In this document: one piece after another, positions 29,248 through 45,680 of the stretch | Layout of the letters: each line of letters begins with the position of its first letter | How positions within the stretch are numbered: the first letter of the stretch is position 1 | DNA from: Candidatus Pacearchaeota archaeon | GTDB taxonomy: Archaea; Nanobdellota; Nanobdellia; Pacearchaeales; GW2011-AR1 | Length of the DNA: 51,401 bases | NCBI GenBank assembly: GCA_018303925.1 | Contig: JAGVXF010000011.1 | Coordinates: 10,563-61,963 of the forward strand | Direction: 5' to 3' | The notes under the pieces: model-generated | The model's input: the letters and a program-made list of their open reading frames with translations, nothing else | Databases searched by the model: none | Told to the model about the DNA's origin: nothing | Translations under genes and position numbers: made by a program

Positions 29248-31549
29248 TTATTTCCCAATCTCTTTTAGTTTCTTCAAAACTTCGTCAAGTTCTTTGGGAG
29301 ACTTTGGCTTTGGAATAGGCCGCCTTTCAGGGGGTCTTTCCTGGGGAATTATTTTCCTTTGAATGGGTGCGCCTATCCTTGGATTTCTGTCGTAAGATGG
29401 AGGGAATCTTGGAGGAAACCCGGGTCCTCTTCCTGGAAATATACCTCCTCCGCCGCTTCTTCTTGCTTTTGATTTTTGTATAAACTCTTTTATTTTATCT
29501 CTGTAAAGAATTCCAACGACAACAATTATTACAAGTGCAAACAAAACCCATATCCACCAATAACTTCCATTAGCAGAAGGATTATCATCTGACTCCATGC
29601 AACAAAAATACGCTGGGTTGCTACAAGTGTAAGCGCTGTCAGGAGAATAACCTTCCGCACACGATGAAGAACATATGCCTAAATTGTCTTCACATGTTGC
29701 CCCGACAGTTCGAGTTTCACAAGTTCCGGGGGTAAGGCAGCACGTCTGATCATGAAACAAATCATCTGTAGAAATACTATTTCCCCCTGAACAAAATTGA
29801 TTATCTGAGCAAATTATTCCATTTAATCTTGAACAAGTTATTTTTTCTGTAGCAATGTCACAACACTTTTGGATTCCGGGGCAGTCATCATAACCTGGAA
29901 CAAATGAACCAGTACATGCTGATGAGAAAGTACAGGTGTAACCTGCAAGTTCACATTCAGTCTCATTGTTATTTGAAGGAGTTGTATCACAGCAAACCTG
30001 CCCGCTTGAGCAAGTCCCTTCAGTGTTCAAGGTTCCTGAACATGTTCCTTCAGGAACACAAGTGTCTCCAAGTTCAGAGCATGTAATTTCATCGTCGTCG
30101 GGAGGTGCAGGATTACAGCAAATATCTGCTCCTGAACAGACGTATGAAGACTCAATTGTCCCGTTACAAAAAGTTCCTGCTGATATACAGTCAAAACCAG
30201 CCTGAGCGCATGTAATATTTCCTATATTGTTTGTCAGGCAGGCCCCTTCTAAACAGCCATCTGTGCACAATACATCTATAGAAGAACTTCTGTTATCTGC
30301 TTTACAAAAGTATTCAGTCAAAGTTCTGTTAGTGCAAAAGTCAGTTCCATTAACAATATTGTTAACAGTCACGCTTCCAGAAACGTTCCATATCTGACCT
30401 CCGTCAGAATCAAAACATGAATGAAATTCGGGAGGAAGCGGGTGGTTATCCCTTGGCCACAAGGAGTATAATAAAAAGCCGTTTGAAACAATATTGTTGT
30501 TATCCCAGCAGCCGTTGGGCTGTTGAATCCCAAAGAGCCAGTTTTTGGCATTTTGCTTTTCTGTTAAACTGTTATCCCCCTGAAAAGGAAGAAGCGCAAG
30601 AGCGGAGTCATAATATTTTCCTCTTGAAATTTCCCAGTACTTATGAAAAATTATTCTGTTTAGAAGTTCTGTTTTGAATTCAAGATTATTTGTCAAGATG
30701 TATAAAAAGGGCTCCGGGAAAAAATTCTTATTGTTTGATGAAAGAGTCTCAAGATAAGGCAAAAAGTCTGAAACGCTTTGCCCGACGGTGTCAAGAACAA
30801 AAGAAGCCCAAAGACTCCCAAGATAATCGCATTTTCCTGCCGAAATAAAGCAATATGAAGTTACGCTTTCCGTTGTTATTCCTCCTGCCGAACTCTGAAC
30901 ATAATCAAGTACATGAAAAGTCGGAGAATTTTTTTCACGGTAAAGAACTGTTGAAATAAAATCCCCGTCGTCGCCGGAATTTTGCGCGTCGCAGGATATC
31001 TGAAATTCACGGTCATAGCAACCCGGAGAAATACTAAACCAGTAATTGTTGTTTGCTCTTGTCAAACAGCTTCCTGCATCCTTATCTATTTTTTTGTCGC
31101 TTCCTATATTAATCACGTAATCTGTAAGAGATAAAGAAGAATCCGGATTTGTTTCGTAAGTAATCTGACAGGTTATAGCATCTTCGCTGTCAATTTCCAA
31201 AAACCAGTCTAAGTCTGTTGAAACCCCTTTTTGTGCCAAAAGCCACTCCTGTGAAGCCGTTGTGTTTGCCCCGACGCTGTCCAATGCAAGAACTACTTTT
31301 GAGGTCATTTCAATATCACATACTGAGCCTCCTTTATTTTCAGGCCAGCAGGAAGATGGGCTTGACAGAAAGAAGAGAGAATATTTTTTCTTCCGTGCTT
31401 AAGACTGAACAGGGTTTAGTCGTGTTAATAAGGTTTTCAACGCAAGTGTAAGCCTTCTGAACGTTTGCGGTCTCATCTGCAAGAACCCCTGCAACTGCAA
31501 AAACTGAAATTAAAAATAAGACAGCAAATACGCACCCCTCTTTTCTCAT
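29248..31549 (-). pseudogene. Large Cys-rich surface protein split by a frameshift near 31365 (N-terminal part 31340-31549, main ORF 29248-31308)
   Basis: Signal-peptide ORF ends 31340; another frame upstream of the main ORF reads SSPSSCWPENKGGSVCDIE directly into MTSKVVLAL. Main ORF has QW-like motif (WLFGIQQPNGCW), five Cys modules, TM, Pro/Arg tail. Confidence 0.7.
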
Positions 31550-33370: not shown

Positions 33371-34099
33371 ATGAAATTAAAAATTGACAATCCTGCACTT
33401 TTTACAAAAGCAATAGAATTGATTTCGGACTTAGTCCTTGAAGTAAGAATAAAAATAAATGAATTCGGACTTTCCGTCGTAGCAATTGACCCCGGAAACA
33501 TTTCAATGGTTTCACTGAAAATTCCAAAAAGCGCATTTAGCCAGTTTGAATCAGGAAATGATGTCCTGGGGGTAAACCTTGAAAACCTTAAAAAAATTTT
33601 GAAGAGGGTCTCAAAAACAGCCTCACTTATTTTAGAAAAAAAGGAAAATTATCTTGAGATAAAAATTGAAGACAAAATAAATCGTTTATTTACCCTTAAC
33701 TTAATTGAAGTTGAAAGAGAAGACAAAGAATTTCCGGAGCACCTTGAATTTTCATCAAAGATTATTATGAATTCCCAGGATTTAATTGATTCAATTGAAG
33801 ACTGCCTTGTTGTTTCGGATGCCTGCTCCTTTATAATTAAGGAGGGTAAATTCATAATTGAGTCAAAGGAAACAAACTCGGCAAGGACCGAATTTTCATC
33901 TGATGAAGCAAAGATTGATGCCGAAGACTGCCATGTCAGGTACAGCCTTGAGTATCTTCAGAAATTCACGAAAGCGGGAAAACAGTTTCCCGAAACAATT
34001 TTAAAATTTGCGGAAGACCATCCGTTAAGAATTGACTTTATTTCCGAGCACTTGAACCTTAGTTTTCTTCTTGCTCCGAGAGTTGAGACTGAAGATTAG
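33371..34099 (+). CDS. pcn: DNA polymerase sliding clamp PCNA
   Basis: AIDPGNISMV, GVNL..LKKIL, YSLEYL, HPL, C-terminal FLLAPRVE. Confidence 0.96.
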   Translation: MKLKIDNPALFTKAIELISDLVLEVRIKINEFGLSVVAIDPGNISMVSLKIPKSAFSQFESGNDVLGVNLENLKKILKRVSKTASLILEKKENYLEIKIEDKINRLFTLNLIEVEREDKEFPEHLEFSSKIIMNSQDLIDSIEDCLVVSDACSFIIKEGKFIIESKETNSARTEFSSDEAKIDAEDCHVRYSLEYLQKFTKAGKQFPETILKFAEDHPLRIDFISEHLNLSFLLAPRVETED

Positions 34100-34211
34100 C
34101 ACTTTAGTAATATTAGAAGATTAATATAAAGTGCTTGTCCGAGAAGAGGATTAACACTTTGCGAATTGAATATTAATAGGAAGTGTTGGTCCGAGCAAAG
34201 GATTAACCATT
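34094..34211. repeat. Tandem imperfect palindromic repeats downstream of pcn
   Basis: AAGTGCTTGTCCGAGAAGAGGATTAAC (34129-34155) and AAGTGTTGGTCCGAGCAAAGGATTAAC (34181-34207); two 12-13 bp stems. Confidence 0.65.
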
Positions 34212-34249
34212 GAAAAAATTTAAGTAGTTTGGATTTCTTTTTAAACAAG

Positions 34250-35191
34250 ATGATAAAAAAAGAGCTCATTGAATTAGCCAACCAGAATTTTAAAAGAGGT
34301 TTTGATGTTAATACAGTTAAGGATATGCTGAGAAATCAGGGATATGCCAAACAGGATGTGGAAGACAGCATAAAATACGCGCAGGACATAAACGAGGGCG
34401 GAGGAGGTCTTGTTTTGACCCAAAAAATTTCAAGGAAAAGCATATGGCTTTATGCTTCCCTGCCTGTAATTCTCGTTGCCGGAATTTTTATTTTTTTTGT
34501 CCTGACTGCTCCAAATGTTCAAATCAGCGAAGGAAAAATTATAGCAGGGGCAAATATAAATATTCCTGAAGGGGGAAACATAAGCTTTTCACTTTATAAC
34601 AAGGCCCACACAATAAAGATAAATTCTGTAACTGAAGATTCAGTAAGCCTGATTATACAAAGCGAGCCAATTGAGATTAACTTAACTATTGGAGAAGAAA
34701 AAGAAGTCGATGTTGACGGAGACAGAGAAAGCGACCTTTACATAAAACTTGTTAACATAACCGACAGAATTCCTGAAATATACATGAAAAAGATAGAGAA
34801 AAGATGCATTGAAAACTGGAGTTGCGGTGAATGGAGCGAATGTGATTCGGAAGGGAAGGAAAAAAGGGTGTGCTCTGACTTAAATTCATGCGGAACTGAA
34901 AACAAAAGTCCTGAAAGGGAAAGGTTATGCGCAGGAAACGGAAACCTAACAGAAAATTTTAATTCGACAAACACAAACATATCAAACTTTACAAGAGAAT
35001 TTAATGAATCAGGAAACTTTAATACAACCCATAATGACAGCAATATTTCAAACAGAACCACGGGTAATAATAATTTAAATTTAACAAATGTAACAGGAAT
35101 AGCGAATGAAACAGAGGGAAATAAAACTAATAATTCTAGATATAATAACAGCAATTTATATGATATCCCCCTTTCAGGAACTTTAAATTGA
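34250..35191 (+). CDS. Membrane-anchored surface protein with TSP1-like Cys/Trp module and Asn-rich tail
   Basis: Single TM, DVDGD motif, CIENWSCGEWSEC...RVCSDLNSCG, many NxS/T. Confidence 0.75.
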   Translation: MIKKELIELANQNFKRGFDVNTVKDMLRNQGYAKQDVEDSIKYAQDINEGGGGLVLTQKISRKSIWLYASLPVILVAGIFIFFVLTAPNVQISEGKIIAGANINIPEGGNISFSLYNKAHTIKINSVTEDSVSLIIQSEPIEINLTIGEEKEVDVDGDRESDLYIKLVNITDRIPEIYMKKIEKRCIENWSCGEWSECDSEGKEKRVCSDLNSCGTENKSPERERLCAGNGNLTENFNSTNTNISNFTREFNESGNFNTTHNDSNISNRTTGNNNLNLTNVTGIANETEGNKTNNSRYNNSNLYDIPLSGTLN

Positions 35192-35260
35192 CCTCTTTAG
35201 ACAATAAATTAACCACTCTCTAATTGAAATATTTATAAATGTAAAAAACCTTTAAAAAAG

Positions 35261-36058
35261 ATGAAAGGGGCGAAGAAATTTAATAAAAAAGGTCAGGTTA
35301 CAATTTTTGTCATCCTTGCCCTTGTTATTATTGTTCTTGGTACTCTGATTTATTTCTTTTATCCGGGAATAAAAATAACTACAAGCCCGCTTGAAGAAAC
35401 TCCCCAGGCATACTTTCAAAATTGTATTGAAGGAAATTTAAGGGAAAATGCGGAATTGATAGGTTTTCAGGGAGGAAGTATTGAACCTGATTCAAGCTTC
35501 AATTATGGGGGAACTCCTGTTGCATATCTTTGTTATACAACTCAGCCTTATGGAGATTCGCCGACGCTAAAATGCGTTCCCCAGCAAGCACTTTTGGTTA
35601 ACCATATAGAAGAAGAAATGAAAGAAGTTATGAAAAATAAAGTGCACTCATGCTTTGATGAAATGAAAGTTGATTATACAAAAAAATATACTGGCGTTAA
35701 CCTTGAAGAAAAAGATTTTAACATTAAGCTTGCTCACAATAAAATAATCCTGCACAGTGACTCAATTTTAACTTTAACAAAAGATTCCCCAGAAAGGTAT
35801 GAAAATTTTGATGTAGTCCTGAATAATAATCTTTTTGAACTTGCTTCTCTTGCAAGAACAATAGTAGCATGGGAAGCAGCATACGGAAGCGCTGACCCTG
35901 TATACTTTATGAATTACTATCCAAATTTGGATATTAAGAATCCCTCTCCGGACGGGGGAAAAACAAGAATATGGATAATAAAAGATATGGTGACAGGAGA
36001 CACATTTCAATTTGCATCAAGTGAAATTATTTGGCCCCTTGGGATTCCATCGCCTTAA
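35261..36058 (+). CDS. Class III signal peptide (pilin-like) protein
   Basis: NKKG|QVTIFVILALVIIVLG. Confidence 0.75.
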   Translation: MKGAKKFNKKGQVTIFVILALVIIVLGTLIYFFYPGIKITTSPLEETPQAYFQNCIEGNLRENAELIGFQGGSIEPDSSFNYGGTPVAYLCYTTQPYGDSPTLKCVPQQALLVNHIEEEMKEVMKNKVHSCFDEMKVDYTKKYTGVNLEEKDFNIKLAHNKIILHSDSILTLTKDSPERYENFDVVLNNNLFELASLARTIVAWEAAYGSADPVYFMNYYPNLDIKNPSPDGGKTRIWIIKDMVTGDTFQFASSEIIWPLGIPSP

Positions 36059-36070
36059 GAATAAAATAAC

Positions 36071-37846
36071 ATGAAAAAAAGAATGATAAAATTCGCGTTT
36101 TTGGGAATCTTCCTAGCTCTTGCTTTTATTTTAATAAATACTAATTTTGTTTACGCTGAAAATAATGTCTGCTGTGAAAAACTTAAGACAAATGCCGACG
36201 GAAGCGGGGGGCAGTGGTGCCAGAATGCTCCAATTAATGCATGTGACATTTCAAAAGGTCTTAGGAGCGCTCCAACTTCATGTGAATCAACTTCTTTTTG
36301 TAAAGCAGGAACATGCTACGATAGTCAGGAAGGAATTTGTGAGAGCGGAGTTTCCCAGACTGTATGCCAAAATTCTGAAGGAGTATGGAATGTAAAACCT
36401 TCCTCAGAAATTCCCCAATGCCAGTTGGGATGCTGTTACCTTGGAGGCGGAGCCAATCTTGCAACCCAAGTAAGATGTAAAGAGTTGTCGGCTCTTTATG
36501 GAGTAAATACAAATTTTAATCTGGGAATAACTTCTGAAATTGAATGTATTGCAAGTGCAGGCGGAGAAGAAAAAGGAGCATGCGTTTATGAAACTGGTGC
36601 TGAAAGAACGTGTAAAATGACAACAAAGTCAGAATGCAACGATTTGAAAGGAGAAGATTCAAATTCAGGCGTTGAGTTTTATGAAGGATATTTGTGCTCT
36701 GATGAAGATCTTCACACAAATTGCGGACCTTCAAAGCAAACAACATGTGTCGTTGGCCAAAATGAAGTTTACTTTTTAGATACGTGTGGAAACCTTGCTA
36801 ATATTTATGATGCAACCCAAGCAACAGACAAAATTTACTGGTCAAAAATAGTTCAAAAGGAAGATTCATGTAATCCAGATTCACCAAATGCAAACTCTGC
36901 CTCTTGCGGAAACTGCGACTTTGCCCTCGGGAGCACATGCAAGGCTTATGAAAAAAGCGGGGCTGTAAAACCTACTATAGGCGAAAACTTATGTAAAGAC
37001 CTTGGATGCACTTTCAAGGGAAAAACTTACAAGCACGGTGAATCATGGTGCGGACTTCCCGAAGGAGTTCCGTTAATAACAGACCAGGAAAACGATGGAA
37101 ATTATGTATTTAATGGCAAAACTTCATTGCCCGATAATTCAAAGGAAAACCTTCCCGGTTCAGTTTATGAAAAATTAACATGCTACAATGGGGAAGTTAC
37201 AATTGACAATTGCTACGACGGAAGGCAAAAAATCTGCGTTCAGGATGAGATTCCAACTCCTGACAAAAAAGGATTCAAAAATGCTGTATGTGCCCTTAAC
37301 ATATGGCAGGATTGTGCTCTTCAAACAGAAGAATACAACTGCCTTGACAGAAATTTAAGAAGTTGCAAATGGCTTCCCAACAATTATGCTCTTGCTTCAC
37401 AAAGTACGCAAGGAACAACAAGAGGAGCATGTGTTCCATTAAATCCTCCAGGATTTGACTTTTGGAGCGGGGAAGGAAATGGCGACGCTGTTTGCTCATA
37501 CGGAACAATTTCATGCCCTTATGAAATTTCAAAAAGTTTGTTGGGAGGATATAGTTTTGCCTCGGGAAGTGAATGTATAGTTGGTCCAGGAGAAGGTCAA
37601 AGAAACATAAAACCCGAATGGGTTGCTGAAATGCAAAATAGGTGCATGAGTCTTGGTGACTGCGGACCAAAGATGAGTTATATAGGAACCCCTGGAGCAA
37701 TACAAATTGTTGCTGAAAAATTACTTTCAGACGGAAAATCAGGGGATTACATTAAGTCAGATGGAAAAACTATTCAAACTCCTAAGGGAACATTTAACTT
37801 TGAAAATTTCATGAAGCAATATTTAAAATCAACTCCTTTTGGATAA
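36071..37846 (+). CDS. Large secreted Cys-rich protein
   Basis: Signal peptide; dense Cys (CCEK, GCC, GAC), RCMSLGDCG near the C-terminus. Confidence 0.8.
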   Translation: MKKRMIKFAFLGIFLALAFILINTNFVYAENNVCCEKLKTNADGSGGQWCQNAPINACDISKGLRSAPTSCESTSFCKAGTCYDSQEGICESGVSQTVCQNSEGVWNVKPSSEIPQCQLGCCYLGGGANLATQVRCKELSALYGVNTNFNLGITSEIECIASAGGEEKGACVYETGAERTCKMTTKSECNDLKGEDSNSGVEFYEGYLCSDEDLHTNCGPSKQTTCVVGQNEVYFLDTCGNLANIYDATQATDKIYWSKIVQKEDSCNPDSPNANSASCGNCDFALGSTCKAYEKSGAVKPTIGENLCKDLGCTFKGKTYKHGESWCGLPEGVPLITDQENDGNYVFNGKTSLPDNSKENLPGSVYEKLTCYNGEVTIDNCYDGRQKICVQDEIPTPDKKGFKNAVCALNIWQDCALQTEEYNCLDRNLRSCKWLPNNYALASQSTQGTTRGACVPLNPPGFDFWSGEGNGDAVCSYGTISCPYEISKSLLGGYSFASGSECIVGPGEGQRNIKPEWVAEMQNRCMSLGDCGPKMSYIGTPGAIQIVAEKLLSDGKSGDYIKSDGKTIQTPKGTFNFENFMKQYLKSTPFG

Positions 37847-37847
37847 A

Positions 37848-40046
37848 ATGAAAAAAGAAATAAAAACAATTGCAATAACACAGGCGCTAATTTTATTAAT
37901 TGGAATTTTCGCATTTGTATGGCTTATTGGGGGAATTCCGAGTGTTAGCGGGGGGGATCCGACCGGCTCAAAATGTACTGCAATGGGAGGAACTTGTTAT
38001 GAGTTTGGAGCAAATAAAAAAAGTAATGCAAATAGTTTATGTAACGAGAAAGTTCCAGGCTCAAAATACGCTCCCGATTTATGTCCGGGAACAACCTATT
38101 GCTGTGTGCCTCCTGAAACCCCTAAAACAACTCCAGAAGATCTTATTAAATCTGCTATTCCTTATGGATTGCAGTATGTGCCCAAATTTTTAACTCCTAC
38201 AAGTATGAATCCTGTTGCAGAAGAGGCAGGAACCAAACTAACTCTTGATTCGGAAACATCAACATTTTGGTCTTCTGTTGGTAAAGAAACATTAAACATT
38301 CTGGGAACAGCCGCTTCGGCGACTCTTGGTTCGTATGCATTTCAAAAGTTAGGAGAGGCTATCGGGGCAAATCCTGAGTGGCAGGATGCTTTAGGAGGGT
38401 TGGGAGGATTTGGAGCAGCAATTGCCTATATGGCAACTCTTGGTTCATTCACCCTTGCTGGATGGGTTGTTGCAGGTCTTGCATTAATAATTAATTTCTT
38501 TATTAAGCACACAACAGAACAGGGAGTAGTTGTTTATTATTGCAATCAGTGGCAACCATCAACAGGCGGGGGGAATTGTGACCTTTGCAACCATCAGGAA
38601 GTTCCATGCTCTGAATACCAGTGTAGAAGCCTTGGACAGGCTTGCAACTTTGTTGCAAGTGACGCAGAAGAAAGCGGAACACCTTTTTGTTTTTGGAACA
38701 ATTCAAATGATATAAACCCTCCTATAATAGAACCAAATCCGGATGTATTAAATATAAATTATATTTACAAACCTGACAATGCAATTGCCCCTCCTGACAG
38801 AGGTGTTGATATTGTAAACACAAAATCAAAGGATGGATGCCTTTCACCATTCAGCAAAGTCACTTTCGGAGTTAAACTTAATGAACCTGCATCATGTAGA
38901 ATTAGTTTTGACATAAGAGAATCTTATGAAGATATGGCAGCATATATTGGAGGAAGCAGCACATTAAAGTTCAACCACACACAAACTCTGGTAATTCCAG
39001 AATTAAATAATACTGTTGGAAAAGACAACTTTATCTCGGCTTATGTAAGATGTGAAGACCCTCAGGGAAATTCAGAAATAGGAAACTTTGTTTTCAAAAT
39101 GTGCGTTCAGGAAGGACCTGATGTTACTCCTCCATACGTTGAAAGCACAAGTATCTTTAATGATTCACAGGTTGCATTTAATGTCACAGGTGCACAGGTT
39201 GACTTTAATATAAATGAGCCTTCGGAGTGTAAATGGTCTTTTGCCTCTGGAAGAACTTATGAAAACATGGAATACAACATGACCTGCGTAACCGACCCAA
39301 CTCAAATTAATTTGAGGCTTGGTTACACATGCACTTCAAACTTAACTGGAATAAAAGTTACAGACAAAACTTATTATTATGTTAAATGCAGAGACCAACC
39401 AACGAAAGAGATTAATGACAGGAATACCATGCAACAGGATTACGTTTATGCTCTCTCCTCTTCAAGAGCACTTGAAATAATTGAGGCTTCCCCTAATGGA
39501 ACCACAATTTCCTCGAATACAGATCCAACTTTAGTAAACTTGAAAGCAAAAACACTTGGAGGAGTTTATGATGGAAGCGCAGTTTGTTATTGGAGTAAAA
39601 CTGGAATTTATGGGGAATACACCATCTTTGACAACACCTCATCATCAGAACATTCAACAAATGTTTATGTTCCTGCAACAAACCCTAACCCCCAGACTTA
39701 TTACATAAGGTGTGATGACCTTGGAGGAAACGCTGATGTTGAAATAATAAAATTCAATGTAAGCCTTGATCTTTTCCCTCCATTAATTTCAAGAGCATAT
39801 TATGAGGAAGGAAAGATGAAAATAATAACAAACGAGAAAGCAGAATGTGAATATTCAACTTCTGACTGCCTTTTCCAGTTTGGCGACGGAGAAAAAGTAT
39901 CTACATATGACCAGTTCAATCACCTTTTAGAATGGTTAACAGAAACAACTCTTTACATAAAGTGCCAGGACATTTACGGAAACCAGCCTGCTTCACCAAA
40001 CCAGTGTAGCATTATTTTAAGGGCTGAAAGTAAGCCTTCTGCCTGA
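37848..40046 (+). CDS. Large Cys-rich surface protein with internal hydrophobic segment and repeated beta-rich domains
   Basis: N-terminal hydrophobic segment; Gly/Ala-rich hydrophobic stretch; repeated NEP-x-x-C...YVRC-x-D-x-x-GN units. Confidence 0.8.
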   Translation: MKKEIKTIAITQALILLIGIFAFVWLIGGIPSVSGGDPTGSKCTAMGGTCYEFGANKKSNANSLCNEKVPGSKYAPDLCPGTTYCCVPPETPKTTPEDLIKSAIPYGLQYVPKFLTPTSMNPVAEEAGTKLTLDSETSTFWSSVGKETLNILGTAASATLGSYAFQKLGEAIGANPEWQDALGGLGGFGAAIAYMATLGSFTLAGWVVAGLALIINFFIKHTTEQGVVVYYCNQWQPSTGGGNCDLCNHQEVPCSEYQCRSLGQACNFVASDAEESGTPFCFWNNSNDINPPIIEPNPDVLNINYIYKPDNAIAPPDRGVDIVNTKSKDGCLSPFSKVTFGVKLNEPASCRISFDIRESYEDMAAYIGGSSTLKFNHTQTLVIPELNNTVGKDNFISAYVRCEDPQGNSEIGNFVFKMCVQEGPDVTPPYVESTSIFNDSQVAFNVTGAQVDFNINEPSECKWSFASGRTYENMEYNMTCVTDPTQINLRLGYTCTSNLTGIKVTDKTYYYVKCRDQPTKEINDRNTMQQDYVYALSSSRALEIIEASPNGTTISSNTDPTLVNLKAKTLGGVYDGSAVCYWSKTGIYGEYTIFDNTSSSEHSTNVYVPATNPNPQTYYIRCDDLGGNADVEIIKFNVSLDLFPPLISRAYYEEGKMKIITNEKAECEYSTSDCLFQFGDGEKVSTYDQFNHLLEWLTETTLYIKCQDIYGNQPASPNQCSIILRAESKPSA

Positions 40047-40176
40047 TTTTCAAATTATATTTTAGAGCGAAATTTACTTTTTACCCTCTACAATACAACT
40101 ATATGCGTGTAAAGGGTAGACCTTTTCAGGGTCAATTTTCCCGAAACTTTAAAAATTAGGTTAACATGATTTTTCC

Positions 40177-40635
40177 ATGAATAAGATGGAGTTAAATAAT
40201 AGGAAATTAAGCAAAATAACCCTAAATAAAAAAGGTCAACTTAATATTTCATTCGGAATGATTTTTTCAATAATTTTAATAATTGCTTTTTTGGGTTTTG
40301 CATTTTATGCAATTCAAAAGTTTTTGGCTTTTCAGCATGACGTTACCGTTGCAAAATTTTATGAATCTCTTGATATTGATGTTGATCAGGTCTGGAAAAG
40401 CACCCAGGCCTCAAAAGAGGTTGAATATATTGTCCCGAGAAGCGTGAAAAAGATTTGCTTTAAACCTGGAACTTTGGAAAACGTTTATTTTTATGAAGAA
40501 CATCCAATCCCAGGAAAATATGTAGAGCATTTAGATATAGGAAGCCTTCTTTGCATAAACACTTCAAAAGGAAAAGTTAATTTTTTATTAGAAAAACAAT
40601 ACGGAGAAGCGCTTGTTAAAGTTTCGGAAGCCTAA
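40177..40635 (+). CDS. Class III signal peptide (pilin-like) protein
   Basis: NKKG|QLNISFGMIFSIILIIAFLG. Confidence 0.75.
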   Translation: MNKMELNNRKLSKITLNKKGQLNISFGMIFSIILIIAFLGFAFYAIQKFLAFQHDVTVAKFYESLDIDVDQVWKSTQASKEVEYIVPRSVKKICFKPGTLENVYFYEEHPIPGKYVEHLDIGSLLCINTSKGKVNFLLEKQYGEALVKVSEA

Positions 40636-40643
40636 AATTAAGT

Positions 40644-40980
40644 TTACAATTCTTTTTTTATTTTTAAAATCTCTCTTTCCAGGATAGGAAGATCCTTTTC
40701 AATCATAAGGTATAATCTTTCAACATTTACCCCAAAATATACATGAGAAAGAAAATCCCTTGCTTTTTCAAAACCCTTAAAATTTATGTTTGGATAATTA
40801 TTCTTAAAATCTTCAGGGAGAGACTTTATTGCTTCACCAATTATTTCAAACCTTCTTATAATTGCATCCTGGTCTTTTATACTTTTTGAATTCCTGTAGA
40901 GACTTTTTTCTTGAATATAACTTAATTAACCTTATTGACTTCAAGATATCATTGATATAGACCCGAACATTTCTTATCAT
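40644..40980 (-). pseudogene. HEPN (DUF86) toxin, frameshifted
   Basis: MIRNVRVYINDILKSIRLI in one frame; DQDAIIRRFEIIGEAIK...RDFLSH (Rx4H)...KDLPILE in another; shift between about 40880 and 40925. Confidence 0.85.
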
Positions 40981-41270
40981 ATCAATTGGATTTCCTCCGA
41001 CAAAATTTGCTTTTTTATCTCCGGCTTTATAAGATTATACTCAACTAAATCCACCTCCCTACTTAACAATTTTTCAAGATTTATCTTTAAGTTTGCTAAA
41101 TCTATCAGGCTCCAACTCCCGTCTATTTCAACTAGGATATCAATATCACTTTTTTCTGTTTCCTCCCCTCTTGCATAGCTCCCAAAAATCCCTGCCTTTT
41201 TGATCTTGTTCTTTCTAAGTACTTGGGTAATTTTCTTTTTTATTTCCTTTATTTTATCTTCTTTTTTCAT
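40977..41270 (-). CDS. Minimal nucleotidyltransferase (MNT) antitoxin
   Basis: GIFGSYARGE...SDIDILV, VDLV. Confidence 0.92.
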   Translation of the reverse strand: MKKEDKIKEIKKKITQVLRKNKIKKAGIFGSYARGEETEKSDIDILVEIDGSWSLIDLANLKINLEKLLSREVDLVEYNLIKPEIKKQILSEEIQLI

Positions 41271-41605
41271 ATTTAGAAGAGCATGATGAGCATTAAAAAT
41301 GTTTTTATGAAGCGTTTATCAAAAAAGAACACCCCACATAGACTTCCAACCTTTAAAGACTTAAGAACCATAAGAAATAAAATTGGGGTTTTTTATTCTC
41401 TCGCTTAATTCTTTTTTGATTATTTCACTAAGATTTATGGCATTTCCTATAACTAAATTTATTTTTTTCATATTTTAAATATTCAACTTTTTTCTCTTAA
41501 ATAAAGAAATGATTGATTTTGAAGCTTACCCCTCTTATCAATTAAACTACCCGATTTCCTAAAGATTCTCACAAACTTTAAAAGTTTAATAACCCTGTTT
41601 AATTT

Positions 41606-42526
41606 ATGCAAAACAAAAAGGGATTTCTTGACATTTCTTTTTCATGGGTCTTTGCCGTAATTGTTGGCGCGATAATTCTTTTCGGGGCAATATATTTTGT
41701 AAATAAATCTGCAAACATACAAAATTCTATAAGCTCAGCAACGACAGGCACAGGACTTCTTAATTTGCTCACCCCCCTTGAAACCGGCCTTGAGTCTGGG
41801 AAATCAATAACAATAACACTTTCTGTAAACTCAAGGATAAACCACAATTGCAATTCTTTTGGAACTTTTGGAAAAGAAACAATATGGATTGACGAATTCA
41901 TAAATAAAAAATGGACAAGCCAAAACATAAAAATAGACCCTATTGACAAGTATCTTTTTTTTCCCAAGGTTCTTGAGGGAAAAGAACTTTATGTTTTTTC
42001 AAAACCTTTTGACTTTCCGTTTAAAATTGCCAACCTAATTTACTTTTCAGATGCTCAAAAAAAATACTGCTTTAAAGGATTCCCACAAGACAAAGAGAAT
42101 GAACTTAAAAATATGGAAGTGAAAAATTTTGAATTCGGCAGCTGTTCAGATGGGTCTGTAAAAATATGCTTTAATTCAAACTCTGACTGCGACATTGAAG
42201 TAAACTATAATCTAAGAATTGTTGAAAAAGAAAATGAGGCAGTTTATTTCGAAGGGGATTCTTTGATGTATGCAGCTATTTTTTCAGACAAAGATATTTA
42301 TGAGTGCGAGCTTGAAAGGCTTGTAAAAAGGGCAGGCAAACTCTCAGAAATTTATCAGGAGAAGTCTCTCAACTTAATATCTGTCGGGTGCGACTCCTCA
42401 GTTGAGTTTTCAGGATACAGAAGTGAACTTTCTAAATTCAATGGCTCAGAAGACCTTTCCTTAATTGCACAAAGTGCAAACTCTATGAATTCAATAAATA
42501 AATATTCGGGATGCACATTATGGTAA
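41606..42526 (+). CDS. Class III signal peptide (pilin-like) protein
   Basis: NKKG|FLDISFSWVFAVIVGAIILFG. Confidence 0.75.
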   Translation: MQNKKGFLDISFSWVFAVIVGAIILFGAIYFVNKSANIQNSISSATTGTGLLNLLTPLETGLESGKSITITLSVNSRINHNCNSFGTFGKETIWIDEFINKKWTSQNIKIDPIDKYLFFPKVLEGKELYVFSKPFDFPFKIANLIYFSDAQKKYCFKGFPQDKENELKNMEVKNFEFGSCSDGSVKICFNSNSDCDIEVNYNLRIVEKENEAVYFEGDSLMYAAIFSDKDIYECELERLVKRAGKLSEIYQEKSLNLISVGCDSSVEFSGYRSELSKFNGSEDLSLIAQSANSMNSINKYSGCTLW

Positions 42527-43041
42527 AACCCAAAAAAGGTCAGATGAAAGTTCAGCAAATGGCATTTATGATGATAGGTCTTGCAATATTTTTTATCCTT
42601 GTTGGACTTTTTGCACTTAGTTTTATTCTTTCTGGGCTTAAAGATTCAAAAGCGCTTCTTGACGAACAACGGGCGACACTTTTAGCAGGAAGACTTGCAG
42701 ATTCACCCGAATTTTCATGCGCAAATGCCTACGGGACAGGCAAATCAAACTGTGTGGATATGGATAAAGTTTTTGCACTGAAAAATAAAATAGATGATTA
42801 TTCGGGTTTTTGGGGAGTTCTTGGAATTGAAATTTTCAGGCTTTACCCCTATGAAAACCAAACTCTTGAATGTGATTCATCAAATTATCCTTATTGCGGG
42901 CACATTACCATCCTGAAGCCAAAAAACCTTGGAACGGACAATTCAGCCTATGTAAGTTTATGTCGAAAAGAAAAAAACGGAAATTCATTTTACAATAAAT
43001 GTGAAATAGGGGAACTTGTAGTGAGGATTTCAGATGAGTAA
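42520..43041 (+). CDS. Class III signal peptide (pilin-like) protein
   Basis: KKG|QMKVQQMAFMMIGLAIFFILVG; overlaps the upstream stop. Confidence 0.75.
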   Translation: MVKPKKGQMKVQQMAFMMIGLAIFFILVGLFALSFILSGLKDSKALLDEQRATLLAGRLADSPEFSCANAYGTGKSNCVDMDKVFALKNKIDDYSGFWGVLGIEIFRLYPYENQTLECDSSNYPYCGHITILKPKNLGTDNSAYVSLCRKEKNGNSFYNKCEIGELVVRISDE

Positions 43042-43068
43042 AATTGTTAAGAATCAAAAATAGAATAA

Positions 43069-43560
43069 ATGTTAAAGATTATAATAGGCAACATAAATAA
43101 AAAGGCACAGTCAGAACTTGCGGGATTTGGGATAATCGTAATTATAGTTGCAATTCTTATTCTTGTTTTTGTATCTTTTAGCTTAAACAATCCTTCTAAT
43201 GAAAACATTAAAAGCTACAAAACAGAATCGTTTGTCCAATCTATGATTCAGTACACAACAACTTGCGAAATAAATGGCCACTATACATCCTTTCTGGACC
43301 TGCCAAAAATATGCAATGAAAACAAGATTTGCTCTAATGGGAAAGATTCATGTGAAGTTTTGAATTCAACCTCAAAAGAAATTGTGGGCAATTCATGGAA
43401 AGTGGGACCTGACTTTCCCGTTAAAGGCTATGAGTTTTCCCTACTTTACGGAGGAAAGAATTTTGTGAACTTTAAAGAAGGAAATAAAACAGGAGAGAAC
43501 AGGGGCTCAAAACAGGTCTTTAGCGGGGGGCTTGAAATAGAGTTTAAGGGGTATTATTAA
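43069..43560 (+). CDS. Class III signal peptide (pilin-like) protein
   Basis: NKKA|QSELAGFGIIVIIVAILIL. Confidence 0.75.
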   Translation: MLKIIIGNINKKAQSELAGFGIIVIIVAILILVFVSFSLNNPSNENIKSYKTESFVQSMIQYTTTCEINGHYTSFLDLPKICNENKICSNGKDSCEVLNSTSKEIVGNSWKVGPDFPVKGYEFSLLYGGKNFVNFKEGNKTGENRGSKQVFSGGLEIEFKGYY

Positions 43561-43908
43561 TCATCCACAAATTATTTCGCAAATCTTTTCCTCAACCTCT
43601 TTAATTTTTTTTTCAGAAACTTTTCCTGCATAGTACAGGATAAGAGATTTTCTGATAGTAAATATTATTGAAGGTTTTATGAAACTTTCTCTTTTTAATC
43701 CCCCTTCTGAAAAATCATTTATTCCCAAGTTGATTTGATAAGGGTCAGAAATGTGACTTTTTGAGGTTATTTGACAAAGAATCAAATCTTCCCCTTTTAA
43801 ATTTGCAATGACAACCGCAGGCCTTTTTATCGAAGATTTTAAATTGGAAAACGGAAAATGAGAAATAATAACTTCCCCCTTATGATATTCTTTTTTCATT
43901 TTAGACAT
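43561..43908 (-). CDS. PemK/MazF-family toxin
   Basis: KGEVI..FPFSN...KRPAVV...ILCQITS. Confidence 0.9.
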   Translation of the reverse strand: MSKMKKEYHKGEVIISHFPFSNLKSSIKRPAVVIANLKGEDLILCQITSKSHISDPYQINLGINDFSEGGLKRESFIKPSIIFTIRKSLILYYAGKVSEKKIKEVEEKICEIICG

Positions 43909-43921
43909 TTTAAAATAAATT

Positions 43922-44125
43922 TTATAAGTCTTTCCATGCAAGATTATCTTCTTTACTTAGCCAATTTCTGGCTAATAAATCTTCATCTGCATAGTAATCA
44001 ATACTCTCCAACTCTTTAATTCTTTTTGAAATTATTTCCCTTACAAAAGAGCTCCATTTGATATCGGAAAACTTTTTCATTTTATTATAAACTTCTTCGT
44101 CTATTGAAAGGGTAATGTTTGTCAT
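43922..44125 (-). CDS. RHH antitoxin cognate to MazF
   Basis: MTNITLSI...IKWS..VR; C-terminal LARNWLSKEDNLAWKDL. Confidence 0.8.
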   Translation of the reverse strand: MTNITLSIDEEVYNKMKKFSDIKWSSFVREIISKRIKELESIDYYADEDLLARNWLSKEDNLAWKDL

Positions 44126-44170
44126 AGGGCTTTAAGTGGCATCACTTATTTAAACCTTTTGTTTTTTTTG

Positions 44171-44512
44171 TTAAATCTTAAGTTTTATCACAATTTCATT
44201 AACAACAATTTTAGGTCTGTGCCTTATTCTTCCGTTTACTTTTTCCTTTATTAACTCTATAAAACCAAATCTTTCAAGGAGTTTTATGTCATCAGTTAGA
44301 GCCTTAAAAGGGCGACCTAAAAGCTTTGAAAGGTTATAAATTGAAGAGGGGTTCTTGTATTTTATAGTGTCAAGAACTTTTGCTTTTTCTTTTGAAAGTA
44401 TTTGCCTTAATGAAGAAAGCCCGTCAAAGTCGTACTTTTCTTTTCCCTTAAGGAATTTGAAAGTTCCCCCTGATTCTCTTATTGAAACTTCTCTTATTTT
44501 TGTCTTTGCCAT
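44171..44512 (-). CDS. Winged-HTH transcriptional regulator / orphan antitoxin-like
   Basis: LRQILS.EK..VL, PSSIYNLSKLLGR....DDIKLLERFGFIEL. Confidence 0.8.
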   Translation of the reverse strand: MAKTKIREVSIRESGGTFKFLKGKEKYDFDGLSSLRQILSKEKAKVLDTIKYKNPSSIYNLSKLLGRPFKALTDDIKLLERFGFIELIKEKVNGRIRHRPKIVVNEIVIKLKI

Positions 44513-44543
44513 TTTTAATATTCAGGACCATCAGAACCCTAAA

Positions 44544-44885
44544 CTATTTTTTTCCATTTAGAATTTCTTTTATTTGCTTTTTCAAAATGGGAATATCTTT
44601 TTTTACTATATTCCAAACAATTCCCAAATCCACATTAAAGTATGCATGAATTATCCTATCTCTTGTTCCGGATATTTTCGCCCATTCAACTTTCGGATAT
44701 CTTTTTTTTATCTCTTTTGAAACATTTTTTGCTGCTTCACCAATTATTTCAAGCCTTCTTATAATTGCATCCTTAATATCTTTATTCTTCCTAAATTCTT
44801 CTTCATATAAATTTGATAATGAGCCCTCTATATCATTTATCGCATCAAGGATGTGCTTTAAGTAAGGAATATCTTGGTATTTCAT
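44544..44885 (-). CDS. HEPN (DUF86) RNase toxin
   Basis: YLKHIL, DAIIRRLEIIGEAAK, RDRIIHAY (Rx4H). Confidence 0.92.
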   Translation of the reverse strand: MKYQDIPYLKHILDAINDIEGSLSNLYEEEFRKNKDIKDAIIRRLEIIGEAAKNVSKEIKKRYPKVEWAKISGTRDRIIHAYFNVDLGIVWNIVKKDIPILKKQIKEILNGKK

Positions 44886-45172
44886 ATTATCCTTATCTCA
44901 TCTCCCAAAATATACTTTTTCAGGTAAGGATGAACAGACCTATATGTCAGCAAATCCACTTTTTTTCCCAACCTTTTCTCAAGTTCTAAAATTACCCCAA
45001 AAAATGCAATTCCCATGTCTTTAGGAGGCTCTATAATTATATCAACATCACTTCCTCTTTTTTGCTCCCCCCTTGCATAAGAGCCAAAAATCCCCGCTTT
45101 TTTGATATTGTTTTTTCTAAGTATAGGAACAATTCTCTTCTTTATTTCATTAATTTCTTTTTCTTTTCTCAT
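44882..45172 (-). CDS. Minimal nucleotidyltransferase (MNT) antitoxin
   Basis: GIFGSYARGE...SDVDII, KKVDL; overlaps the HEPN start. Confidence 0.92.
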   Translation of the reverse strand: MRKEKEINEIKKRIVPILRKNNIKKAGIFGSYARGEQKRGSDVDIIIEPPKDMGIAFFGVILELEKRLGKKVDLLTYRSVHPYLKKYILGDEIRII

Positions 45173-45445
45173 GCCGAAGTGAGTTTTTTAAAAGTTAAAA
45201 ATGTTTGTCTTTTAGTTTTTCTATCCAATTTTGTTAATTTTCCCCAAACTTAATTTAGCACTTTTAACCCCGAATTTATGAATTTGACACCCGCATTTAT
45301 GAATATCTATTATTTTTGAATATATATAGTTTTGGATTTTTTCTCCAATCCCGTTTTTATGTAACTTTTATAAAAGGACAGCGTAAGGTTTTTAAATAAA
45401 ACCTTAAAAAATAGGGGTCTTTATGCCAAAACCGAAAGTTTTGTT

Positions 45446-45460
45446 CCAAAGCTTTTTAAA
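45446..45460 (+). promoter_or_regulatory. Putative BRE/TATA promoter of the S-layer gene
   Basis: CCAAAGC-TTTTTAAA ending about 20 nt upstream of the structured leader; position inferred only. Confidence 0.4.
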
Positions 45461-45480
45461 GAAAAATCGGCTTTCCATGT

Positions 45481-45665
45481 TACACTCAATTGAGGGTGGT
45501 CTTATAGGGGATAAGCCAAAGCATACGCGAAAAGACGAATGCACGGCATACCTATAAGTTAAGCTAAAGAGTTCCCCTATAGCTTTTTAGCGAAAACTTC
45601 GGGCCGCTTCGCGGCTTAAAAAGAGGGTGAGGAAAATCACCTTCCAATAGAGGTACAAAGGAGGA
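45481..45665 (+). promoter_or_regulatory. Structured 5' leader of the S-layer gene, ending in a GGAGG SD
   Basis: Multiple stems: CTTATAGG/CCTATAAG, GCTAAAGAGTT/AGCTTTTTAGC, GGGCCGC/GCGGCTT, GAGGGTGA/TCACCTTC; GGAGG at 45660-45664. Confidence 0.65.
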
Positions 45666-45680
45666 CAAAAAAACGAAAAA

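Follow-up and report, generated by a model that had tools for sequence, protein, structure and literature searches.

A window of 51,401 nt from the genome of a Candidatus Pacearchaeota archaeon, tiny and probably symbiotic (contig C22:10563-61963; genome of 636 kb in 25 contigs, 90.7% complete) carries a cluster of seven neighbouring genes, all open reading frames (ORFs) on the plus strand, that probably encodes a core cell-surface structure. Five of the products, here called P1 to P5, have class III (prepilin-type) signals, and the other two, C1 and C2, are rich in cysteine and, judging from their homologues, are two halves of one giant membrane protein. The interpretation that we place first, giving it slightly less than an even chance, is that the region encodes a minor-pilin-like complex together with cassettes of a pilin-like adaptor and a giant ectoprotein, the whole forming a lineage-wide envelope module. 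Archaea of the Pacearchaeota/Woesearchaeota type, an abundant and uncultured group, are believed to spend their lives attached to other cells, and we know of no attachment structure in them. Few surface modules are kept by nearly all such archaea; the cluster is among them, and every one of its protein families is unannotated. Its genes, which lie where an initial annotation of the window had placed them, are as follows (↓ marks the predicted cleavage site).

P1: 35261-36058, plus strand; class III-signal protein of 265 aa with 4 cysteines, cleavage context ...NKKG↓QVTIFVILALVIIVL and a globular domain of ~230 aa
C1: 36071-37846, plus strand; 591 aa, Sec-type signal, 41 cysteines, no N-glycosylation sequons, C.SLGDCG motif at the end; secreted N-terminal half of the giant cysteine-rich protein
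C2: 37839 (TTG start) or 37848 (ATG start) to 40046, plus strand; 732-735 aa, 27 cysteines; membrane half of the giant protein
P2: 40177-40635, plus strand; class III-signal protein of 152 aa with 2 conserved cysteines, LNKKG↓QLNISFGMIFSIILII
P3: 41606-42526, plus strand; class III-signal protein of 306 aa with 8 cysteines, NKKG↓FLDISFSWVFAVIVGAIILF; the most conserved member
P4: 42511-43041, plus strand; class III-signal protein of 176 aa with 6 cysteines, PKKG↓QMKVQQMAFMMIGLAIFFIL
P5: 43069-43560, plus strand; class III-signal protein of 163 aa with 4 cysteines, NKKA↓QSELAGFGIIVIIVAILIL; Q at +1 and E at +3 invariant

Pilin-like proteins and the giant partner

The N-termini of P1-P5 consist of a short basic leader that ends in KKG or KKA and a hydrophobic stretch of ~20 residues, and the number of cysteines is even in each protein (4, 2, 8, 6 and 4 for P1 to P5). 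A crude genome-wide regular expression for class III N-termini gave 29 matches in 636 kb, four of which (P1, P2, P3 and P5) fall in the 8.3 kb of the cluster, against ~0.38 expected; P4, whose hydrophobic run begins only at +7, was missed by the strict pattern. Stronger evidence than this count, in our view, is that the [KR][GA]↓Q/F motif and the hydrophobic stretch are retained in every orthologue listed for the P1-P5 families. Beyond the N-termini the proteins differ: profile comparisons of P2, P4 and P5 gave alignments confined to the N-terminal 22-53 columns, that is, to the signal and the hydrophobic segment. Thus the initial annotation, which saw five co-oriented class III genes with dissimilar globular domains flanking two cysteine-rich proteins, is borne out by the ORFs, the orthologues and the profiles. 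Its remark that several junctions are tight or overlapping holds as well: by ORF coordinates, P1 and C1 are 12 nt apart, C1 and C2 overlap by 8 nt or leave a 1-nt gap, P3 and P4 overlap by 16 nt and P4 and P5 are 27 nt apart, the remaining spacings being 130 nt (C2-P2) and 970 nt (P2-P3).

C1 and C2 are best considered together. Across 20 related loci they often occur as a single ORF of 1,037-1,368 aa with 59-70 cysteines, and since such fused forms are common among relatives we read the pair as one polytopic membrane protein that is split in this genome, and reject the view of two independent proteins. The fused forms comprise an N-terminal signal, a cysteine-rich ectodomain of ~500 aa, central hydrophobic segments (1-4 in seven of eight fused forms scanned, none detected in L032) and a second ectodomain. 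The layout of C2 itself is an N-terminal transmembrane segment or signal, a small cysteine domain, a Gly-rich hydrophobic region at ~150-225, a cysteine knot with C.SLG..C and then immunoglobulin (Ig)-like repeats. A C-x-SLG motif common to C1 and C2, already noticed in the initial annotation, proved to be conserved in relatives and to occur on either side of the membrane segments: the first ectodomain (C1 part) ends in 'C.SLGDCG' just before them, and the second (C-terminal part of C2) begins with 'PC[ST].Y.C.SLG..C' directly after them. In each of the 10 split pairs the two halves together have an even number of cysteines; both halves are odd in five of the 10, the window pair included, which hints at a disulfide between C1 and C2. 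The Atlas models of C1 and C2 have pLDDT values of 0.64 and 0.66, respectively; beyond its own kin, the C2 model bears a weak likeness to Ig-like (Big_13-type) repeat proteins (TM-score 0.22-0.36), and the C1 model resembled no named fold.

The giant protein has a regular companion in P1. Of 31 C1-bearing ORFs, 23 have a P1 homologue as their immediate upstream neighbour on the same strand; in two others this position is taken by a divergent class III protein, and two more are at the edge of their locus. In several genomes the P1+C cassette is tandemly duplicated two or three times, the copies having 23-37% identity to the window proteins; the pair duplicates as a unit. Moreover, the same genome encodes a second P1-family protein, of 613 aa and with a class III signal, on contig C5 (C5:14639-24277, loci L085 and L086), where its gene overlaps that of another giant by 4 nt. 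The first 210 aa of this protein match the P1 profile (98.4% probability, E 5e-15). Its giant neighbour is secreted, at least 2,600 aa long (it runs off the contig end) and carries an SLT lytic transglycosylase domain at residues 2120-2242 (E 2e-13) and ankyrin repeats; comparison with C1 and C2 revealed no similarity. Because of the upstream placement, the duplication as a cassette and this second pair, P1-type proteins look like dedicated partners of giant ectoproteins. The contig C5 giant is, in its own right, a candidate cell-wall-degrading surface effector with a pilin-like partner of its own.

The order of these genes is widely conserved. Among the 20 related loci, an arrangement of the gene for a cysteine-rich 686-aa protein, primase and PCNA, followed by P1, C, P2, P3, P4, P5 and an S-layer-like gene, recurs across the taxonomic order, and the sequence C-P2-P3-P4-P5 was fixed in all related loci examined (these 20, 26 further ones and 12 distant ones), in agreement with a synteny check that the initial annotation had proposed. 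In the 26 further loci the same order was always found, with P2 in 23, P3 in 26, P4 in 26 and P5 in 25. Homologues of C2 occurred in 53 of 61 relatives. Of 121 genomes of the order, 118 have P3, in most cases as one copy, and in a sample of the phylum the P3 profile found a match in 173 of 201 high-quality genomes, all labelled as the same class. The labels of homologues of the cluster and its S-layer-like neighbour give Pacearchaeota and Nanoarchaeota, and those in the Atlas give Nanobdellota. Against 1.84 billion proteins, the P3 profile retrieved 1,993 representative clusters, 1,432 of them at E ≤ 1e-10 and 429 at E ≤ 1e-30. The cluster belongs to the core of the order and class, being nearly universal and mostly present in one copy. 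It is no accessory island for host range, and duplication and divergence are confined to the P1+C cassette.

The 12 distant loci keep a block of giant Ig/cysteine-rich proteins, P2-like, P3, P4-like and P5-like genes. Their giants carry Big_13, CarboxypepD_reg, TSP3 and Glucodextran_B domains, and further class III genes follow the block in the distant lineages, including short six-cysteine ones of 84-99 aa. Among these relatives (L044:561-4517 and L040:2-2035) a 672-aa Peptidase_M23 protein (E 1e-16) is encoded downstream of the P2-P5-like block, and weak, sub-threshold Amidase_3 and 3D-domain matches occur at the same loci; all three are bacterial-type cell-wall hydrolase domains, here within an archaeal surface locus.

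Predicted P3-P4 heterodimer and filament machinery

Complexes were modelled from the globular parts only (P2 47-152, P4 43-176 and P5 39-163, with P3 33-306 as partner), so that generic packing of hydrophobic helices cannot yield a pass. The model reached an ipSAE interface score of 0.87, versus 0.00 for the best of three controls. In calibration, 116 of 157 solved complexes and 2 of 215 mismatched pairs scored as high, counts that are only rough guides here as the run used alignments of our own making and four chains, unlike the calibration set-up. The runs share at least 84% of their contacts, and the pLDDT of the partner is at least 82. The confident interface is that between P3 and P4, the products of the two overlapping genes, and it is enriched in conserved non-cysteine residues (9 of 14 in P4, p 0.003; 10 of 46 in P3, p 0.04). 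The model thus speaks for an association between the globular domains of P3 and P4, as a predicted heterodimer.

The initial annotation found no assembly ATPase, platform protein or prepilin peptidase in the window. This is correct, and all three are encoded elsewhere in the genome, on contigs C10 and C21. The one Peptidase_A24 gene lies at C21:10540-10884 (53.4 bits, above the cut-off); this family occurs in 120 of 121 genomes of the order and in 197 of 201 of the phylum sample. The contig C10 locus encodes one T2SSE ATPase, two T2SSF/TadC platform proteins and four class III proteins. The contig C21 locus (C21:1443-11361, L080), which like that on C10 resembles a type IV filament locus, encodes a 760-aa T2SSE ATPase, a 718-aa protein without family match and seven small class III proteins (118-294 aa), followed by the peptidase. 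The 718-aa protein is possibly a divergent platform protein. No similarity was found between P3 and the 294-aa class III protein of this locus.

A possible minor-pilin-like complex and its alternatives

In the interpretation that we tentatively prefer, P2-P5 would be four unrelated proteins with prepilin-type N-termini, cut after [KR][GA] by the sole A24 peptidase, that assemble through their N-terminal hydrophobic segments and disulfide-stabilized globular domains around a P3-P4 heterodimer core. The resulting complex, minor-pilin-like or pseudopilin-like, may prime or cap a short type IV filament, which one of the two secretion ATPase loci elsewhere in the genome would build. P1 would act as a pilin-like adaptor that always travels with, and presumably binds, a giant cysteine-rich Ig-repeat ectoprotein. 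The giant C1+C2 protein, for its part, would be anchored in the archaeon's own membrane by its central hydrophobic segments, and the P1+C cassette, duplicated and fast-diverging, would be the presumed ligand-contacting part, perhaps with a role in attachment. The initial annotation had proposed a minor-pilin tip/adhesin complex for host recognition: the class III N-termini, the gene order, the machinery in the genome and the P3-P4 model speak for the minor-pilin part of that proposal, but C1 and C2 are not free tip adhesins.

This arrangement recalls bacterial minor-pilin sets, such as fimU-pilVWXY1E of type IVa pili and GspH-I-J-K of type II secretion systems, which have a large non-pilin partner. 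The likeness extends to several dissimilar prepilin-type proteins, one of them large, in a fixed operon order, to a giant Sec-signal protein in the same cluster and to a complex of globular domains, the last of these predicted here by the model. However, there is no sequence homology between the two; the giant has membrane segments and Ig-like repeats where the bacterial partner is a soluble beta-propeller; and the locus, which belongs to an archaeon, is without a major pilin, an ATPase and a platform protein.

Archaeal type IV pilus loci offer a second comparison. As described by Makarova, Koonin and Albers (2016; PMC4858521), such loci combine class III-signal proteins, minor pilins among them, with large signal-peptide, adhesin- and S-layer-like proteins that have many conserved cysteines, and PMC13705601, whose 'system 1'/Epd-type loci are also among the closest known systems, describes DPANN pilin genes as scattered, apart from an ATPase gene and a platform gene that adjoin each other. 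The present genome conforms to this pattern, with one ATPase and two TadC genes in the contig C10 locus, but the seven families of the cluster match no library family and the cluster is unlinked to an ATPase in 32 loci. A description of the cluster itself was not found by full-text searches of the literature or in the portions available of PMC4858521, PMC13705601 (supplementary tables aside), PMC11537232 and the Nanobdella aerobiophila preprint (10.1101/2023.10.27.564410).

Several observations weigh against a minor-pilin-like complex or fail to support it. First, Pfam, NCBIfam, PHROG and PDB searches give no match for any of the seven proteins: none of them (nor any of three neighbours treated below, namely g0, the 686-aa protein and the S-layer-like protein) reaches a Pfam or NCBIfam cut-off; a PHROGs scan of the seven and the S-layer-like protein gave no match; PDB profile searches with all five P families returned nothing significant; and the best pilin-family match in a profile search was Geopilin, at E 1.7 and over the N-terminal helix only. 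Second, when the region behind the hydrophobic segment of P2-P5 was examined, by a crude measure, for an amphipathic helix, no signal emerged (mean z -0.9 to 0.1). Third, the four-chain complex model contains no confident P2-P3 or P5-P3 contacts, from which we draw no conclusion on P2 or P5. Fourth, tblastn with the machinery proteins found no ATPase, TadC or peptidase gene within ~10 kb of the cluster in the 32 related loci (~12-20 kb each), and the phyletic pattern cannot tie the peptidase to the cluster, because 197 of 201 genomes have Peptidase_A24, including nearly all of those in which P3 was not matched. Finally, the membrane segments of the giant protein do not suit a cargo of the filament tip. 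The large partner is not soluble, as C2 and its fused homologues carry 1-4 central hydrophobic segments besides the N-terminal one; a protein so embedded in the membrane is ill-fitting as a free pilus-tip adhesin, a role that we consider ruled out for C1/C2.

The cluster might instead be an envelope scaffold and no filament, an alternative that we regard as unlikely but serious. In that case the class III N-termini would serve as membrane anchors, as they do in the ArlF/ArlG archaellum stator proteins and in sugar-binding proteins of Sulfolobales, and P2-P5 and the giant would hold or organize the S-layer and the space beneath it. ArlF/ArlG-type proteins, which are membrane-anchored, pilin-like and contact the S-layer, resemble the cluster proteins in their hydrophobic, pilin-like N-terminus, in having a domain outside the cell and in a possible functional tie to the S-layer, but homology between them was not detected. 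A near-universal, mostly single-copy distribution is what one expects of a housekeeping envelope part, and in most loci of the order, as well as in some of the distant loci, the cluster has the S-layer-like gene beside it. Lacking a strong transmembrane anchor at its C-terminus, the S-layer-like protein needs a membrane partner, and the giant is itself membrane-anchored. Assembly genes, moreover, were not found nearby in the 32 loci, and PMC13705601 notes S-layer-like Ig-fold proteins in archaeal type IV filament loci, with the proposal that they prime the S-layer. A scaffold accords less well with seven of the distant loci (L039, L040, L044, L045 and L047-L049), which have no S-layer homologue after the block and instead contain further class III genes. 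Nor does it account for the S-layer gene being a separate unit ~0.7-2 kb away, or for the conserved [KR][GA]↓Q motif, which suggests cleavage rather than mere anchoring. On the one hand, the cleavage-type motif, the second P1-giant pair with its lytic domain and the extra short pilin-like genes of distant lineages favour a link to type IV filaments; on the other hand, the near-universal, single-copy distribution, the S-layer-like gene nearby and the anchoring of the giant in the membrane speak for a housekeeping part of the envelope.

Also conceivable, though improbable, is that the locus encodes the core of an undescribed cell-contact machine that nearly the whole class keeps. Here a short pseudopilus with a P3-P4 core would operate together with the giant, a protein rich in disulfides that has one ectodomain on each side of a Gly-rich membrane hairpin, and P1-type adaptors would dock interchangeable giant effectors, the lytic transglycosylase giant among them, to form a bridge by which the archaeon attaches to a host and taps it.

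Quite improbable, in our estimate, is a pseudopilus of the type II secretion kind, with P2-P5 at the tip of a short piston that exports the giants (C1/C2 and the contig C5 giant) or presents them across the S-layer. Four distinct pilin-like genes, one of them large (P3, 306 aa), do recall the GspH-K set, the genome has two sites where a P1-family gene adjoins one for a giant secreted protein, and the P3-P4 model fits such a complex. However, the N-termini of C1 and C2 are ordinary Sec-type ones, Pfam, NCBIfam and PDB profile searches show no homology to Gsp proteins, none of the 32 loci links an ATPase locus to the cluster and, to our knowledge, there is no archaeal type II secretion system. 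Very improbable is a set of functionally unrelated surface-protein genes held together only by retention of synteny in small genomes: PCNA and primase, clearly unrelated in function, are likewise kept beside the cluster, but the tight junctions (with the 16-nt P3-P4 overlap and the overlapping or abutting C1 and C2), the co-duplication of P1 and C, an order held across the whole class while the flanks change and a predicted P3-P4 interface enriched in conserved residues all speak against it.

What the cluster would teach us depends on the outcome. If the filament interpretation is true, the minor-pilin/adhesin logic of bacterial type IV pili extends to DPANN archaea; if the scaffold interpretation is true, the cluster identifies how the S-layer of these archaea is held. 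In both cases it offers handles for experiments, namely the predicted interface of the P3-P4 heterodimer, a predicted peptidase site in each P protein and a duplicating adaptor-plus-giant cassette, which could carry host or ligand specificity.

Flanking genes and further surface loci

The genes around and within the cluster are listed below; an Rfam scan of 34000-46000 gave no match.

29248-31308, minus strand: 686-aa protein with 43 cysteines, a C-terminal transmembrane segment and a Pro-rich tail; no family match
34229-35191, plus strand: g0, a membrane protein with a single transmembrane segment (residues 74-92), the motif C..WSCGEWSEC and 20 N-glycosylation sequons in its tail
40644-41270, minus strand: insertion between P2 and P3, consisting of a nucleotidyltransferase gene and a HepT-like remnant without an intact frame
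43561-45172, minus strand: insertion between P5 and the S-layer-like gene, with PemK/MazF-like, HVO_A0114-like, HepT and nucleotidyltransferase genes
45681-48167, plus strand: S-layer-like gene encoding a secreted protein of 828 aa without a strong C-terminal transmembrane segment; a transcription unit of its own and a conserved neighbour of the cluster

Directly upstream of P1, g0 is probably a neighbour outside the module, with a homologue at the same position in only two of the 20 related loci (L019 and L020). Its 20 sequons compare with none in C1 and P1. The initial annotation had called it a protein like thrombospondin type 1 (TSP1); the likeness of its C..WSCGEWSEC..C motif stands, but there is no Pfam TSP match.

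The same annotation placed the cluster just upstream of an S-layer gene, which holds with two qualifications. The S-layer-like gene begins 2.1 kb past P5, with five minus-strand genes between them, and its family label derives from homologues only. The window protein itself has no Pfam match even at E 10. PF05124 S_layer_C is matched by three homologues (identity ~54-65%), with E-values of 1e-6 to 4e-5, near the cut-off of 23.9 bits (two above it, at 28.9 and 28.3, and one just below, at 23.7), and most of the listed homologues carry a precomputed PF05124 match.

The toxin-antitoxin genes are read as insertions that do not belong to the module, because the close relatives L019 and L020 are without the P2-P3 insertion and have P2 and P3 adjacent, spaced by 11-13 nt.

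On the other flank, many relatives retain the gene for the 686-aa cysteine-rich protein, together with primase and PCNA, alongside the cluster, and the cysteine repeats of this protein resemble those of a 1,202-aa protein encoded at C21:92711-96319. Elsewhere in the genome, C20:37962-39221 (L083) encodes a class III-signal protein of 419 aa whose C-terminal domain is of the Laminin_G_3 (concanavalin-like lectin) family (E 9e-22) and which resembles a modular lectin pilin; two similar N-termini occur at C20:9835 and C23:4390.

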